Of a stretch of DNA of 44,685 nt, positions 4,373-44,683 are shown piece by piece. The position numbers and the translations under genes are program-made. The number at the start of each line of letters is the position of its first letter. The first letter of the stretch is position 1. Where the stretch lies: the NCBI GenBank assembly GCA_037132395.1, contig JBAXPC010000001.1, forward strand, positions 1-44,685, written 5' to 3'. This DNA is from a bacterium (GTDB lineage: Bacteria > Patescibacteriota > Saccharimonadia > CAILAD01 > BJGX01). The notes beneath the pieces were generated by a model. That model had not been told where the DNA came from, did no database searches, and saw only the letters and a program-made list of their open reading frames with translations.

Positions 4373-5077
4373 ATGATAAAAGTTAATGATGTATCAAAAA
4401 CCTACGGCAAGGGCGACAACCTCTTTACGGCCCTATATAAAATAAGCCTTGAGGTGCCAGAGGGTTCGACGGTAGCGATAATAGGCAAATCGGGCTCCGG
4501 CAAATCGACCCTGATGCACATTATGAGCGGGCTCGACCACGCCTCTAGCGGTGAGATTGTAATAGGTGGCAAAAGCCTGACCGAGATGAAAGCTAAGCAA
4601 ATCGACGCTTTTAGAGCCTCGGAAATGAGTTTTATATTTCAGGCGTTTTTTGTGGAGGCTAATCAAACTTGTTTCCAAAATGTGATGCTGCCATTAGAGA
4701 TTGCCAAGACACCTAGAGGACAGCGCAAAAAACGAGTCGAGGCGGCACTTAGGGCCGTTGGCCTAGAAGAGAAAGTCGATGCCTTGGCCTCGACACTGTC
4801 GGGTGGGCAAAAGCAACGTCTGGCGATAGCCAGAGCGATTGTTAATAGGCCGAAGATTATTTTTGCCGACGAACCTACCGGCAACCTCGATAGTGCTACC
4901 GGCGAGCTAGTTATAGATTTGCTTTTTGAGCTTAATAAAAAACTAAAGTGTACGCTAGTGGTGGTAACTCACGATGGTGAGCTGGCCGATAAATGCGGTA
5001 TTCGAATCGAAATGAAAGACGGCGAAATAATATCGGCTTCAAATTCTAAAGCCAAAAAAGTGGTTAGGCGAGTATGA
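4373..5077 (+). CDS. ABC transporter ATP-binding protein, MacB/LolD-like
   Basis: Walker [10 protein letters not shown], signature LSGGQKQR, Walker [13 protein letters not shown] overlap with the downstream permease. Confidence 0.9.
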
Positions 5078-19542: not shown

Positions 19543-20394
19543 ATGAATATACAACATATTACACATAATGACAATAGTTTCCCCAAATTACTACGCAGCA
19601 TTGCTAGTCCGCCAAAACAGCTATACGTGGCCGGATCAATACCAGACTTGCCGATGGTAGCAATTGTTGGTACCAGGAGGCCTACAGCTTATGGAAATGA
19701 GATTACCTACAGGGTAGCGAGTGAGCTAGCTAAGGCTGGCTTTTGTGTAGTTAGTGGTATGGCACTGGGCATCGATAGTATCGTCCATAAGGCAGTCCTA
19801 GAGACCGGAGGATTAACCTTGGCGGTATTGGGCTGTGGACTCGATAGGCCTTACCCTAGGAGCAATACTGGCTTATTTGAAGCTATTATTAAATCTGGTG
19901 GAGCTGTTGTCAGCGAATACCCAGAGGGTACCGAGCCACTTCGGTTTAATTTTCCAGCCCGCAATAGAATAATAGCTGGGCTGAGCATGGCTACTGTAGT
20001 AACAGAGGCCGATGCCAAATCCGGTAGCCTGATAACCGCTAATTTCGCGCTGCAGGCAAACCGTATGGTAATGGCTATTCCTGGGAATATTACTAGCCAA
20101 CGTTCGGCAGGGCCTAATAACCTCATAAAGAGTGGTGCACATCTGGTGACAGGTGCATCAGACATCCTGGCACTACTTGGCTTCCTGAGCCCTCATCTCG
20201 TTAAAGCCAAGCCTAAGGCTGATAGCAAGCAAGAGGCTATGATAATGGATTTGCTTTCGGTTGAGTCGTTGACTTCTCAGCAGCTGATCGAGGAAACTAA
20301 GATTGACGCCATAAGCCTGGCCTCTATTATGAGCCTAATGGAGATAACTGGAAAAATAAAAAACCTCGGAGCAGGCAGCTGGATACTGGCTTAA
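19543..20394 (+). CDS. dprA: DNA processing protein DprA (Smf)
   Basis: VGTRRPTAYG, SGMALGIDS, AIPGNI Rossmann-like core, and a C-terminal winged-helix region. Confidence 0.9.
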   Translation: MNIQHITHNDNSFPKLLRSIASPPKQLYVAGSIPDLPMVAIVGTRRPTAYGNEITYRVASELAKAGFCVVSGMALGIDSIVHKAVLETGGLTLAVLGCGLDRPYPRSNTGLFEAIIKSGGAVVSEYPEGTEPLRFNFPARNRIIAGLSMATVVTEADAKSGSLITANFALQANRMVMAIPGNITSQRSAGPNNLIKSGAHLVTGASDILALLGFLSPHLVKAKPKADSKQEAMIMDLLSVESLTSQQLIEETKIDAISLASIMSLMEITGKIKNLGAGSWILA

Positions 20395-20396
20395 AG

Positions 20397-20425
20397 TTGA
20401 AATTATACAAATAATGTAGTATAAT
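20397..20425 (+). promoter_or_regulatory. Near-consensus sigma70-type promoter
   Basis: TTGAAA (20397-20402), 17 nt, TATAAT (20420-20425), starting 3 nt after the dprA stop. Confidence 0.55.
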
Positions 20426-20431
20426 ATGTTT

Positions 20432-20823
20432 GCAATGTTCTTTGGAAAACTAGCAGCTTAAAGCTAAAGGAAAGCCTTTCGCCCTTATGGTCTGTCAGCC
20501 CGTTGGGTTAAAGTCAAAGACAGTTGACCTTCTGCAGACAAAGAAGCGAGCTGAATTTACGCTCCTGCTTTGACCATGATAGACTGCTTTACTGCTAGCT
20601 GAGAGTTGCTACAAAAGCATCATAGGCAAGCCTCTGCAACCAATCGCAGGGCGGAGATGTCGGTATGGTACGGGAGAATTTGCCTCTCCCACCGACTGCT
20701 TGATTGCAATTCTCGGGGAGTGTCACTCCAAAATGACTGCTGCTTATATTTTTTTTACTAGCTAAGCAGCACATCCAAAGAATAGGGGCTCGGTGGTTAA
20801 AACCACCGAGCCCCATTTTTATT
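20432..20823 (+). ncRNA. Candidate structured RNA of about 390 nt; class unknown
   Basis: Lies between the consensus promoter and a 13-bp GC-rich terminator, GGGGCTCGGTGGT-taaa-ACCACCGAGCCCC plus T5 (20785-20820). It has many nested helices, for example a tiered hairpin at 20635-20708, GGTCTGTC...GACAGTTGACC at 20489-20529, and GCTGCTTA...TAAGCAGC at 20738-20770. There is no SD-led ORF. Confidence 0.55.
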
Positions 20824-20984
20824 CAGTGCTGTCATACTTCATTAATCTACTCTACAAAATGTTGGACCGTACAGCTGAGAGGCCGGATAGATTTATAATT
20901 GGGCACTTTATTCTTTAACTTATTGCTTATGCTTATATAAAGTTCTACAATAAATTATATTATAAACATGAGGATAATATAGTA

Positions 20985-21485
20985 GTGTCTCAAGCTAAAA
21001 GTAATATCGGTGAACTAATTTCAGGACTTGTTTTGCCAGCTATGTTTGTAATGGCCTGGGTTTTGGCCCTAACTGGATCGCGAGCGCCACTGTCTGTCGG
21101 TGTTGAGACTACTGATATCAATACCATTCATTGGCTTTTGTATTTTGTAGGCTGGGTTTTCCTGTTCTCGTCTGTAATGCACTCGATATTTGCCAAGAAA
21201 ATGGCCAAAAGCATTGGCTGGGTTACGAACGGCTTTCAGTACGAAATAGCTGCCGTCAGCTTGGGCCTTGGAATAGCTTGTTTTTATGCTATTGGCGCTG
21301 GCATAGAGGCTTGTGTTGCCATCGCCCTGCCAGTAATTACTTTTTTGTTTTTCGCAGGACTCAACCACTTGTATGAAATGATTCGCGACAAAAACTATGC
21401 ACCCAATAATAGCCTGGTGCTAATCTATGACTTTGGCATGTCAATATCACTTTTCGTACTAATACTGCCTTTTATAAAAATCTAA
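20985..21485 (+). CDS. Hypothetical integral membrane protein (about 5 TM helices)
   Basis: GTG start. Hydrophobic helices run throughout. No family recognised. Confidence 0.6.
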   Translation: MSQAKSNIGELISGLVLPAMFVMAWVLALTGSRAPLSVGVETTDINTIHWLLYFVGWVFLFSSVMHSIFAKKMAKSIGWVTNGFQYEIAAVSLGLGIACFYAIGAGIEACVAIALPVITFLFFAGLNHLYEMIRDKNYAPNNSLVLIYDFGMSISLFVLILPFIKI

Positions 21486-21689
21486 AGGCTAGTAACTGCA
21501 CAAAGCTAAACTGCGGCCAGGTAATGTATGTTTATATTCTTTTTTATGGCCCTTGGTGCAATGCAATAAATAATCTTCTATTGTGCTAAGGTTTGACAAT
21601 ATCGGGTGTTGTATTATATAGTTCTTTTCCTGTGCACATTTGCATTAATAGCAATTAAACACTAGCATATTCAAGTAGCCATAAAATTC

Positions 21690-44608: not shown

Positions 44609-44683
44609 TGGGGCGTCGCCAAGTGGTAAGGCAACGGTTTTTGGTACCGTCATACGCAGGTTCGAACCCTGCCGCCCCAGCCA
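44609..44683 (+). tRNA. tRNA-Gln (anticodon UUG) with encoded CCA
   Basis: Cloverleaf: acceptor TGGGGCG/CGCCCCA; D-arm region TCGCCAAGTGGTAAGGCA; anticodon stem ACGGT/ACCGT with loop TT-TTG-GT; T-arm GCAGG-TTCGAAC-CCTGC; discriminator G plus CCA. Closely parallels the E. coli tRNA-Gln layout as I remember it. Confidence 0.9.

Follow-up and report, generated by a model that had tools for sequence, protein, structure and literature searches.

Background

Among the described systems closest to the RNA reported here is the raiA motif RNA family (PMC12968392). The raiA motif RNA is a large orphan non-coding RNA (ncRNA) of Bacillota and Actinomycetota that typically adjoins the competence gene comFC. 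Bacterial ncRNAs this large and intricately folded are rare, and RNase P RNA, tmRNA, OLE, HEARO omega-RNAs, ROOL and GOLLD each brought unexpected biology. Saccharibacteria, which are naturally transformable, have small genomes (about 1 Mb) that carry little spare DNA. Our literature search returned no relevant described Saccharibacteria or Patescibacteria ncRNA at the dprA-topA locus.

The RNA described here lies after dprA at positions 20397-20823 of the window, by which we mean the whole 44,685-nt stretch of DNA that was analysed (contig JBAXPC010000001.1). All parts of this RNA gene are on the + strand. Like the raiA motif RNA, this dprA-topA RNA is a stand-alone structured ncRNA of at least 200 nt with its own promoter and terminator and an unknown function, and it lies beside dprA as raiA RNA lies beside comFC. 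It differs from raiA in lacking a match to the raiA model (E<=10), in its helices and conserved nucleotides, in its phylum and in its much narrower distribution. With RNase P RNA and tmRNA it shares a length of approximately 350-400 nt, ends joined in a closing helix, a strongly expressed appearance and variable peripheral helices; however, it fails their defining motifs and models, has another topology and is not universal among relatives. OLE, ROOL and GOLLD are likewise large, intricately folded bacterial ncRNAs with covariation whose function was unknown at discovery, but the dprA-topA RNA does not reach their size, is not linked to phages or mobile elements, occurs in other taxa with another architecture and matches none of their models.

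Results

Transcription signals and gene boundaries

Positions 20397-20823 very probably contain a genuine, separately transcribed ncRNA gene of a new family; expression is inferred solely from the conserved promoter and terminator. The gene is approximately 390 nt long, and compensating mutations maintain its branched fold throughout one freshwater Saccharibacteria clade. It matches no catalogued RNA family among the models searched, and its role is unexplained.

The sigma-70-type promoter (20397-20425) consists of TTGAAA (20397-20402), a 17-nt spacer and TATAAT (20420-20425), an 11/12 match. The dprA stop codon ends at 20394 and the -35 box begins 2 nt later. From the position of the promoter, transcription is inferred to start at approximately 20432. 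A TTGnnA...TATAAT box is found upstream of every homolog. The RNA ends in an intrinsic terminator (20785-20823), a G+C-rich 13-bp hairpin followed by A and U5, the stem of which (GGGGCUCGGUGG/CCACCGAGCCCC, 20785-20814) has 10 G-C pairs among its 13. In every homolog folded independently, a long G+C-rich hairpin (13 or more pairs) with a subsequent U run forms the 3' end. These homolog terminators were read by eye from the folds, and the terminator scan covered the window copy only. The sequence between the dprA stop codon and the terminator at 20785-20823 showed no further terminator-like hairpin, so this terminator probably also stops dprA read-through.

The initial annotation, made without database searches, had proposed an RNA gene between dprA and topA with a near-consensus promoter, a 13-bp terminator about 390 nt later and no open reading frame (ORF) with a credible Shine-Dalgarno (SD) sequence. 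The signals and their spacing held (11/12 promoter match; terminator scan), and so did the lack of an ORF: none in the RNA region has a credible SD, none is conserved among 14 homologs, and none is shared among these beyond near-identical relatives. The location held in part, as topA does not directly adjoin the RNA in the window and a DUF6790 membrane-protein ORF (20985-21485) intervenes.

The minimum free energy (MFE) of the + strand of 20432-20820 was -155.7 kcal/mol, compared to -108.8 +/- 5.0 for shuffled sequences (z = -9.4). The - strand of the same segment folds at z = -6.45, and two homologs gave z-scores of -8.7 (L008) and -7.3 (L005).

Distribution and locus context

Homologs of approximately 265 to 505 nt, a single copy per locus, occupy the dprA-topA interval in lineages that represent 16 different DprA sequences (61-100% identity). 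The RNA was not at the dprA-topA site in three lineages at 60-64% DprA identity, nor in any at 52% or less. Related lineages without it include L044, L007 and L015, in which it is therefore dispensable or replaced. Vertical inheritance in the dprA-topA interval of one freshwater Saccharibacteria clade (UBA4664-like) best explains this distribution; the RNA is clade-restricted and is no general feature of Saccharibacteria or Patescibacteria. A strict three-motif DNA pattern run over metagenome contigs recovered only a near-identical copy (L029), the pattern being too specific to the window's subgroup. No phage or plasmid similarity of the RNA was detected by blastn, a pattern scan of viral contigs was also empty, and no CRISPR- or TIGR-type repeat arrays were seen in the RNA region.

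The locus context bears on whether the RNA is instead a cis element, acting either as the leader (riboswitch or attenuator) of DUF6790 or topA or as a structured dprA 3' UTR that stabilizes the mRNA and terminates it. In favor of this reading, the RNA is always somewhere between dprA and topA, and in the window it comes straight after dprA without an intervening terminator-like hairpin, so that read-through probably ends at the terminator of the RNA. Against it, the RNA has its own conserved promoter and a very strong terminator, and inserted genes part it from dprA in L034 and L040. Depending on the locus, the gene that follows the RNA is DUF6790, topA or an unknown ORF of 195 or 84 aa, and topA has its own conserved promoter and leader, even in loci without the RNA. 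No antiterminator is apparent, as the 5' arm of the terminator, GGGGCUCGGUGG, is not complementary to the 3' strand of the closing helix P1, UCCAAAGAAUA. A cis-acting role is thus considered very unlikely.

Covariation

The same P1/P2/P3 topology was obtained when each homolog was folded on its own, and RNAalifold applied to a plain MAFFT alignment gave the same architecture, with compensatory changes in 28 of 113 pairs. The structure-aware alignment was anchor-based with N padding, and a separate covariance model was also used. In the anchored core alignment, 96% of cells were paired and 30/37 pairs had changed on both sides; covariation of this degree was reached by 0/500 shuffles, and slid controls were 32-50% paired. 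When a covariance model was trained on close relatives alone, it recovered six divergent copies (L008, L030, L042, L036, L037 and L041), with full-length matches at the syntenic site only (206 kb searched). In the covariance-model alignment, 92.9% of cells were paired and 18/27 pairs were compensatory. The window copy scored 150.9 bits (E = 8e-36) against model R1 and meets the family definition, which comprises P1, the P2/P2.1/P3 junction, CCA/UGG in P3 (UCA/UGA in two copies), the G.U closing pair of P3.1 followed by UAARG, and an own promoter and terminator.

These data weigh on the possibility that the locus is a non-functional relic, either a decayed gene or a mobile-element remnant, that folds well by chance. 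The patchy, clade-restricted distribution would fit a relic. However, compensatory changes keep at least four helices across lineages with DprA only 61-78% identical, the promoter and terminator are conserved, each locus has a single copy, and there is no phage or plasmid similarity, repeats or ORF remnants. The relic explanation is all but excluded.

Helical architecture

The core, consisting of P2, P2.1, P3, P3.1 and P3.2, forms nested three-way junctions, and P1 joins the 5' and 3' ends. Approximately 130 nt make up the conserved core, and the peripheral domains differ in size. Invariant or near-invariant core nucleotides are the inner CCA/UGG of P3, the G.U pair and the UAARG junction.

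P1 encloses the whole RNA by pairing UGUUCUUUGGA (20436-20446) with UCCAAAGAAUA (20774-20784), a pairing supported by the MFE fold of the window, the homolog folds and the anchored alignment. It was recovered independently in 14/14 homolog folds, and 13/14 of its columns vary on one or both sides in the anchored alignment with all cells remaining paired. Within it, the 5' strand of P2, CUAGCAG-cu-UAAAGC (20450-20464), pairs with 20586-20598; P2 sequences are wholly different between lineages, yet complementary in all. The P2.1 hairpin (AAGG/CCUU, 20467-20486), seen by RNAalifold and the model-based alignment, has a 12-nt loop with a conserved CCUUUC at 20475-20480. In the model-based alignment (helix 2) it was 88% paired, with both-sided changes in 4/5 pairs. 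CUUUC occurs in the P2.1 loop of 11/14 homologs; L042 has CUCCUUUC and L040 has CCUCCUU in its place.

P3 pairs GGUCUGUCA (20489-20497) with UGAUAGACU (20577-20585). The latter directly adjoins the 3' strand of P2, GCUUUA-CUGCUAG, and the two strands together span 20577-20598. The innermost A:U pair and the next C:G pair of P3 are invariant, the third is C:G in 12/14 copies and U:A in two including the window (UCA/UGA), and a conserved unpaired A (20576) lies just 5' of the 3' strand. By ungapped extraction from the anchors alone, P3 was 86.5% paired and 6/9 pairs had changed on both sides. The P3.1 hairpin, GCCC-GUU-GGGU, has a closing G.U pair that is present in 14/14 copies, followed by the junction UAAAG (consensus UAARG; hairpin and junction, 20498-20513), and shows compensatory changes in L003, L040 and L042.

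The P3.2 sub-domain (20514-20573; MFE fold and RNAalifold) is formed by an outer helix, UCAAAG-a-CAG/CUG-c-UUUGA, that encloses a pyrimidine-rich stretch, CCUUCUGC (20528-20535), as well as the small hairpins CUUCU/AGAAG and GAGC/GCUC. The outer helix covaries, with GCCA..CCAG/CUGG..UGGC in L002, AGCAGACAG/CUGUCUGCU in L005 and GGUUGUGG/CCACAACC in L042.

The variable 3' domain P4 (20599-20716; MFE fold and RNAalifold) is closed by CUGAGAGUUGC/GCAAUUCUCGG and holds CUGC/GCAG, GUCGGU/ACCGAC and GGGAGA/UCUCCC. Its closing helix shows compensatory changes and has equivalents in L005, L008 and L036; the short forms L037, L041 and L045 either lack the domain or have another in its place. Hairpin C, GGAG-UGUCA-CUCC, and the junction AAAA-UGAC follow at 20717-20737 (hand alignment). 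Its loop GUCA (20722-20725) could form an H-type pseudoknot with UGAC (20734-20737), and 3/4 of these pairs had changed on both sides (GCA:UGC in L008, GGUG:CACC in L042). This pseudoknot remains tentative because the alignment was handmade with only eight sequences. Hairpin D, GCUGCUUA/UAAGCAGC (20739-20770), has a U-rich loop and is supported by the MFE fold and RNAalifold; its site in L003 and L005 has different sequences that are still complementary.

Pairing of the P2.1 loop (CCUUUC) with the UAARG junction, which would form another pseudoknot, was considered and rejected. Complementarity of 4 bp exists in approximately 10/14 copies, but without covariation, and in L037 and L045 the junction is altered while the loop is the same.

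All complementary segments named in the initial annotation exist in the sequence, and the comparative data decide which of them pair. The GUCGGU/ACCGAC and GGGAGA/UCUCCC tiers held, as did the GCUGCUUA/UAAGCAGC helix (hairpin D) and the CCC-GUU-GGG hairpin (P3.1). GUCAAAG and CUUUGAC do pair, but as the ordinary nested helix P3.2 and not as the suggested pseudoknot. Three proposals failed: the outer tier UGCAACCAA/UUGAUUGCA, as that domain is instead closed by the conserved helix CUGAGAGUUGC/GCAAUUCUCGG; the pairing of GGUCUGUC with GACAG..ACC, as the conserved partner is UGAUAGACU, giving P3; and AUGAU..GCUUU/AAAGC-AUCAU, which clashes with P2 and P3.

Comparison with known RNA families

Searches of Rfam 15 with the window copy and nine divergent homologs returned no match, even at E<=10. 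Neither the gathering threshold nor a cutoff of E<=10 yielded a match to the bacterial RNase P type A and B covariance models in the window region or in the nine homolog loci. There was likewise no match to the SRP and 6S RNA models at E<=10, the fold being branched and not rod-like, nor to the raiA, OLE, ROOL, GOLLD and HEARO models. ARAGORN found no tmRNA in the window, its sole find being a tRNA-Gln at 44609. The RNase P CR-I/P4 sequence GAGGAAAGUCC was not matched with up to two mismatches inside 20432-20822, and no T-loop motif (T-arm GGUUCGAnUCC) was present in the RNA region. Of protein-binding motifs, no CsrA GGA, 6S bubble or SRP domain IV was found.

Two candidate identities were rejected individually. 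AGGAAAGCC and GCUUAU are faintly CR-I/CR-IV-like, but RNase P RNA was ruled out by the motif search, the model search and topology. The 5' end of the window copy, ..GGA AAA CUA GCA GCU UAA (KLAA-stop, 20435-20461), resembles a tmRNA tag; tmRNA was rejected because the tag frame is not conserved and lies within helix P1, ARAGORN and Rfam were negative, and there is no T-arm.

A highly divergent universal RNA (RNase P RNA, tmRNA, SRP or 6S RNA) missed by the models is all but excluded for similar reasons. The dprA-topA RNA does resemble RNase P RNA and tmRNA in its length (about 390 nt) and in the pairing of its 5' end with its 3' end, and the window copy carries the tag-like mini-ORF. Against this, 10 divergent copies have no Rfam match at E<=10, ARAGORN is negative, there is no CR-I motif or T-loop, and the mini-ORF is truncated or missing in L002-L006. 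Only about 130 nt are conserved, the rest being variable, and the RNA is missing at the syntenic site in close lineages. In addition, P2 is already closed at nt 167 of 390, leaving the 3' half as a separate variable domain. This is incompatible with the topology of tmRNA and with that of RNase P RNA, in which the P1 and P2 strands are contiguous at both ends and P4 is a long-range pseudoknot.

The unknown class put forward in the initial annotation therefore held, as no Rfam family was found whether the gathering threshold or E<=10 was applied. The homologous segments and compensatory base-pair changes expected in related genomes were found, the latter in abundance. Given the lack of an Rfam match, the homologs and the compensatory changes, a dedicated structured RNA that is independently transcribed and belongs to an uncatalogued class is the best reading.

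Discussion

Proposed function

Our leading hypothesis, drawn by analogy without an identified target and held as less likely than not, is that the dprA-topA RNA may be a trans-acting RNA presenting anti-SD-like pyrimidine loops. In this model, a rigid scaffold would display the conserved pyrimidine-rich apical loop (CCUUUC, replaced by CUCCUUUC in L042 and by CCUCCUU in L040) together with a CCUCCUG-like stretch inside P3.2. By pairing with purine-rich ribosome-binding sites (AAAGG/GGAGG), these elements would keep mRNAs from being translated, as do the C/U-rich loops of RNAIII, RsaE or RoxS. We take the CCUUUC and CCUCCUG-like stretches to resemble the 3' tail of 16S rRNA; the window contains no 16S gene. 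As the CCUUUC loop and the P3.2 stretch share the sense of that tail, they could pair with ribosome-binding sites, and several genes in the window use AAAGG-type SDs.

The dprA-topA RNA resembles RNAIII and RsaE/RoxS in being independently transcribed and multi-hairpin, with conserved pyrimidine-rich loops complementary to purine-rich ribosome-binding sites. The criterion for base-pairing sRNAs of an independent promoter and a Rho-independent terminator is met at the window and all homologs. However, it has no homology to those RNAs, it is a closed, junction-rich core with invariant nucleotides and not a string of hairpins, and it has no known target and mixed predicted loop accessibility. The mean predicted unpaired probability of the CCUUUC motif is approximately 0.6, compared to approximately 0.37 for the whole RNA, but it spans 0.15 to 0.99 across homologs, and the motif is mostly paired by prediction (0.15-0.4 unpaired) in L040, L030, L002 and the window. 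By RNAalifold, the P3.2 stretch is paired within a local hairpin in the window group. No conserved intramolecular GAAAGG partner for the CCUUUC loop was found at a consistent position among the homologs upon reading the sequences. Invariant junction nucleotides and a three-dimensional-looking core, which are more typical of RNAs recognized by proteins or ligands, also argue against the pairing model. Taken jointly, a stand-alone RNA gene of a new family with an anti-SD-like trans mechanism is a proposal that we lean slightly against.

A possible alternative is that the RNA is an RNP scaffold or a protein sponge, in which the junction core and pyrimidine loop form a protein-binding site. The bound protein may be, for example, the normal reader of the 16S 3' tail or an RNA chaperone, and the RNA would sequester or organize it in the manner of 6S, CsrB, Y RNA or OLE. 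In favor are the invariant junction nucleotides and G.U pair, the ends closed by P1, and a modular core with an insertable and deletable periphery (approximately 265 to 505 nt), a pattern known from RNP RNAs. Reading of the sequences also revealed no intramolecular or mRNA segment that consistently partners the conserved loop. Against it, the known protein-binding motifs listed above are missing and no protein gene co-occurs consistently, as the neighboring genes are not the same at every locus (DUF6790, RNA_pol_A_CTD-like ORFs or unknown ORFs at some, none at others).

A ribozyme or trans-acting ligand sensor, with the core forming a catalytic or small-molecule pocket, is very unlikely. Large bacterial RNAs with complex folds have often turned out to be catalytic or RNP machines, and the junction nucleotides, the G.U pair and the candidate pseudoknot are conserved. 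Nevertheless, there is no likeness to known ribozyme or riboswitch models, the inconsistent genetic context gives no hint of a substrate or ligand, and the conserved core, no longer than about 130 nt, contains few unpaired bases that are invariant.

A second orphan RNA beside dprA

A second orphan RNA of approximately 230 nt was observed upstream of dprA on the opposite strand. It is conserved even more strongly and has an invariant UCACCCUCCUUUUAG apical region, which we take to be nearly identical to the 16S 3' tail; anti-SD-like loops thus recur in the lineage. To return to the pairing model, a bolder reading is that both dprA-flanking RNAs are anti-SD mimics, with the dprA-topA RNA founding a new class of large structured RNAs. 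We consider this unlikely. If true, the two RNAs together would titrate either SD-led mRNAs or a factor recognizing the 16S tail, and would shift translation between SD-led mRNAs and the many leaderless-looking mRNAs of the reduced genome, amounting to a global RNA-based translation-partitioning system in Patescibacteria.

Conclusions

The findings are limited to one freshwater clade, in which expression is inferred and function is a hypothesis. Despite its small genomes, this clade retains a structured RNA of 265-505 nt plus a second RNA of approximately 230 nt alongside it. For this RNA family there is now a core definition, a secondary structure amenable to testing and a specific hypothesis, namely that its loops may act in an anti-SD-like manner.

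Results

The promoter, terminator and complementary segments that the initial annotation had read in the dprA-topA RNA gene (20397-20823, plus strand) are all present in the sequence. The promoter (20397-20425, plus strand; TTGAAA, 17 nt, TATAAT) starts 2 nt past the dprA stop codon and matches the consensus at 11 of 12 positions, and the terminator (20785-20814, plus strand) consists of a hairpin of 13 bp, 10 of them G-C, and then A and U5. The ~390 nt between them have a minimum free energy (MFE) of -155.7 kcal/mol, whereas dinucleotide shuffles give -108.8 ± 5.0 (z = -9.4). The fold of the opposite strand is less extreme (z = -6.45). Upstream neighbors are Der/EngA, Pth and DprA. Downstream, a gene for a DUF6790 membrane protein (20985-21485) precedes topA, so the RNA lies in the dprA-topA interval, as originally placed, but does not adjoin topA.

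Relatives of its DprA place the window among freshwater Saccharibacteria, several records of which are named UBA4664, with 98% DprA identity at L001 (L001-L045 denote homologous loci or contigs from DprA relatives). Homologous segments, whose absence from related genomes would have refuted the initial annotation, were found. Sequence searches located the RNA immediately 3' of dprA in L001-L006 and a divergent form in L008. Contigs of more distant DprA proteins yielded further copies (L030-L033, L034/L035, L036, L037-L039, L040, L041, L042/L043 and L045), which had diverged too far for the first profile and were recognized visually as well as with a later profile. All copies have a TTGnnA...TATAAT promoter, and every copy is closed, as read from independent folds, by a long G+C-rich hairpin and a U run; lengths span ~265 nt (L037, L041, L045) to ~505 nt (L036). 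One copy occurs per locus, with no second copy in the window.

The lineages with the RNA represent 16 distinct DprA sequences, which share 61-100% identity with that of the window. Judged from the dprA neighborhood only and not from whole genomes, the RNA is missing from the dprA-topA interval in L044 (64% DprA identity), in L007 and L015 (60%), and in all Saccharibacteria examined with DprA identity of 52% or below. The simplest history is that an ancestor gained the RNA at this site and that it was then inherited vertically and occasionally lost. In L034 and L040, minus-strand genes are inserted between dprA and the RNA, which keeps its place shortly upstream of topA. In this gap, at 3892-4837 in L034 and 3907-4422 in L040 (minus strand), lie small inserted ORFs with the fold of an RNA polymerase alpha C-terminal domain (PF03118). 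Separately, the terminator hairpin sequence (GGGGCUCGGUGG.., window 20785-20814) is near-invariant in L001-L006 even where the remaining RNA has diverged, and distant copies retain a GGGSCYYGGURNC-like 5' arm. Such conservation exceeds the needs of a plain terminator.

Independent MFE folds of 14 representatives gave one common topology. P1 (core CCUUGG/CCAAGG) joins the extreme 5' and 3' ends directly before the terminator, P2 is next inward, and the P2.1 hairpin holds CCUUUC in its loop. P3 terminates in CCA/UGG in 12 of the 14 copies; the other two, the window and L030, have UCA/UGA. In P3.1 (GCCC/GGGU) the closing pair is invariably G.U, and the junction UAARG comes next. The P3.2 sub-domain includes CAGUU, a stretch resembling CCUCCUG and the hairpin GAGC/GCUC; a conserved A then precedes the 3' strand of P3 and that of P2. 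In the window, the variable 3' region comprises domain P4 (20599-20716), hairpin C (20717-20729) and hairpin D (20739-20770).

This structure was subjected to three tests of rising independence: a hand-anchored core alignment, RNAalifold on a MAFFT alignment, and a covariance model. In the hand-anchored alignment (14 sequences), the anchors alone defined P3 and P3.1, and the analyst chose the strands of P1 and P2; 96% of cells were paired, with both-side changes in 30 of 37 pairs, a result reached by 0 of 500 shuffles. Slid controls were 32-50% paired, and the anchor-only helices P3 and P3.1 were 86.5% and 100% paired, respectively. RNAalifold, applied to the unedited MAFFT alignment of six sequences, recovered the same helices (28 of 113 pairs compensatory). 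The covariance model described the core in the six close sequences alone, with the RNAalifold structure as its basis, and every distant locus was among the 206 kb searched. The model matched L008 (E = 2.5e-6) and L030, L042, L036, L037 and L041 (E = 0.003-0.08), every match being full-length and solely at the expected site; these E-values are rough, given a shortened calibration. Among the sequences so found, which played no role in defining the structure, 92.9% of cells were paired and 18 of 27 pairs had both-side changes, against 27-45% pairing in slid controls. The narrow model missed L034, L040 and L045, all three of which nonetheless have the anchors and helices. Only about 14 independent sequences were available, and alignment was partly by hand.

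Compensatory changes in related genomes are abundant, and the claim of a structured RNA held. Among individual helices first proposed, P3.1, two inner tiers of the long hairpin and hairpin D were upheld, and the pairing GUCAAAG/CUUUGAC was confirmed, but as nested helix P3.2 and not as a pseudoknot. The outer tier UGCAACCAA/UUGAUUGCA, GGUCUGUC/GACAG..ACC and AUGAU..GCUUU/AAAGC-AUCAU were unsupported because each competes with covarying helices. A candidate H-type pseudoknot, between the hairpin C loop GUCA (20722-20725) and UGAC (20734-20737), shows compensatory changes in L008 and L042; it may be real, although eight hand-aligned sequences leave it tentative.

At gathering thresholds, Rfam 15 returned a single match in the whole window, tRNA-Gln, and none for the dprA-topA RNA. 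At E ≤ 10, nothing beyond weak matches below threshold was obtained for 20300-20950 or for nine divergent homolog loci, and most of these fell on the terminator hairpin, so the orphan status first assigned held. The tRNA-Gln (UUG; 44609-44683), at the window's very end, is the sole Rfam or ARAGORN match in 44.7 kb. For tmRNA, ARAGORN was negative and the T-loop motif is absent from the region, as is the CR-I motif of RNase P RNA. A mini-ORF at 20435-20461 (AUG UUC UUU GGA AAA CUA GCA GCU UAA; MFFGKLAA-stop), beginning ~3 nt past the inferred transcription start, resembles both the end of a tmRNA tag and a leaderless ORF. In the closest relatives (L002-L006), however, it is truncated or unconserved, and it lies inside helix P1; it is likely due to chance. 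No conserved ORF was found on either strand across 14 homologs, no repeat arrays were found at the RNA region, and phage or plasmid records and viral contigs showed no similarity to the RNA. No account of the RNA turned up in our literature search.

On its minus strand, the 400-nt pth-dprA gap carries a second orphan RNA gene, ~230 nt long (~19452 to ~19222). It has a promoter (minus strand; TTGACA 19486-19481, 17 nt, TG-TAGTAT 19463-19458), a terminator-like hairpin and U run (minus strand, near 19263-19222), a fold z-score of -7.9 and no Rfam match at E ≤ 10. Its sequence is near-invariant, conserved far beyond both flanking proteins, and occurs in all lineages with DprA identity ≥ 60%, including those without the dprA-topA RNA. 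Segment 19350-19333 can pair with 19418-19399 or 19283-19266, and a two-state RNA is possible. The long hairpin bears an invariant apical UCACCCUCCUUUUAG that is close to the 16S rRNA tail.

Discussion

The conserved unpaired elements of the dprA-topA RNA are the P2.1 loop, junction nucleotides and the P3.2 pyrimidine stretch. Of 14 copies, 11 have CUUUC in the P2.1 loop and nine have the longer CCUUUC; L042 has CUCCUUUC and L040 CCUCCUU. At the P3.2 stretch the window reads CCUUCUG, and the short forms read CCUCCUG. Both motifs run in the same sense as the 3' tail of 16S rRNA (..CACCUCCUUUCU) and complement the AAAGG/GGAGG ribosome-binding sites of some window genes. No consistent intramolecular partner was found for the P2.1 loop, whose predicted accessibility averages about 0.6 (range 0.15 to 0.99) versus about 0.37 for the whole RNA. 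At least six of about 40 window genes look leaderless, with a TATAAT-like box 6-9 nt before the start codon and no Shine-Dalgarno sequence (SD), for example at 4373, 10835, 13104, 18583, 36312 and 43148 on the minus strand; others have AAAGG/GGAGG-type SDs.

Given the 16S-tail-like apical region of the second RNA, anti-SD-like loops recur at the locus, and mainly for this reason a pairing or mimicry mechanism is ranked first. The dprA-topA RNA would act in trans by pairing with purine-rich ribosome-binding sites. Such a regulator is our best guess and remains only a possibility, inferred from sequence motifs with no function shown. A protein-binding scaffold is conceivable and about as likely, since RNP RNAs typically combine modular peripheral domains with invariant nucleotides at their junctions. 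A ribozyme or sensor ranks below both and is unlikely.

Lower still, and also improbable, is a cis-regulatory element. The RNA has its own conserved promoter, its terminator is very strong with no apparent alternative pairing with P1, and downstream genes vary among loci. Moreover, topA retains its own conserved promoter and leader whether or not the RNA is present. Upstream of topA, in the window (21594-21689) and also in L015, L030, L036 and L040, a promoter (TTGACA, about 17 nt, TATATAGT) precedes a 5' leader of ~65 nt that lacks an SD (..CTGTRC..ATTTGCA..AAACAYTAGCAT..). Both elements are conserved, and the leader may be autoregulatory or supercoiling-sensitive.

Conclusions

A divergent housekeeping RNA, ranked beneath a cis element, and a relic, ranked last, are both very unlikely. 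The dprA-topA RNA fails every known-family membership test run. We regard it as a new RNA family, novel in structure as well as in sequence, with expression inferred from sequence signals only, and its mode of action may yet prove to be a known one.
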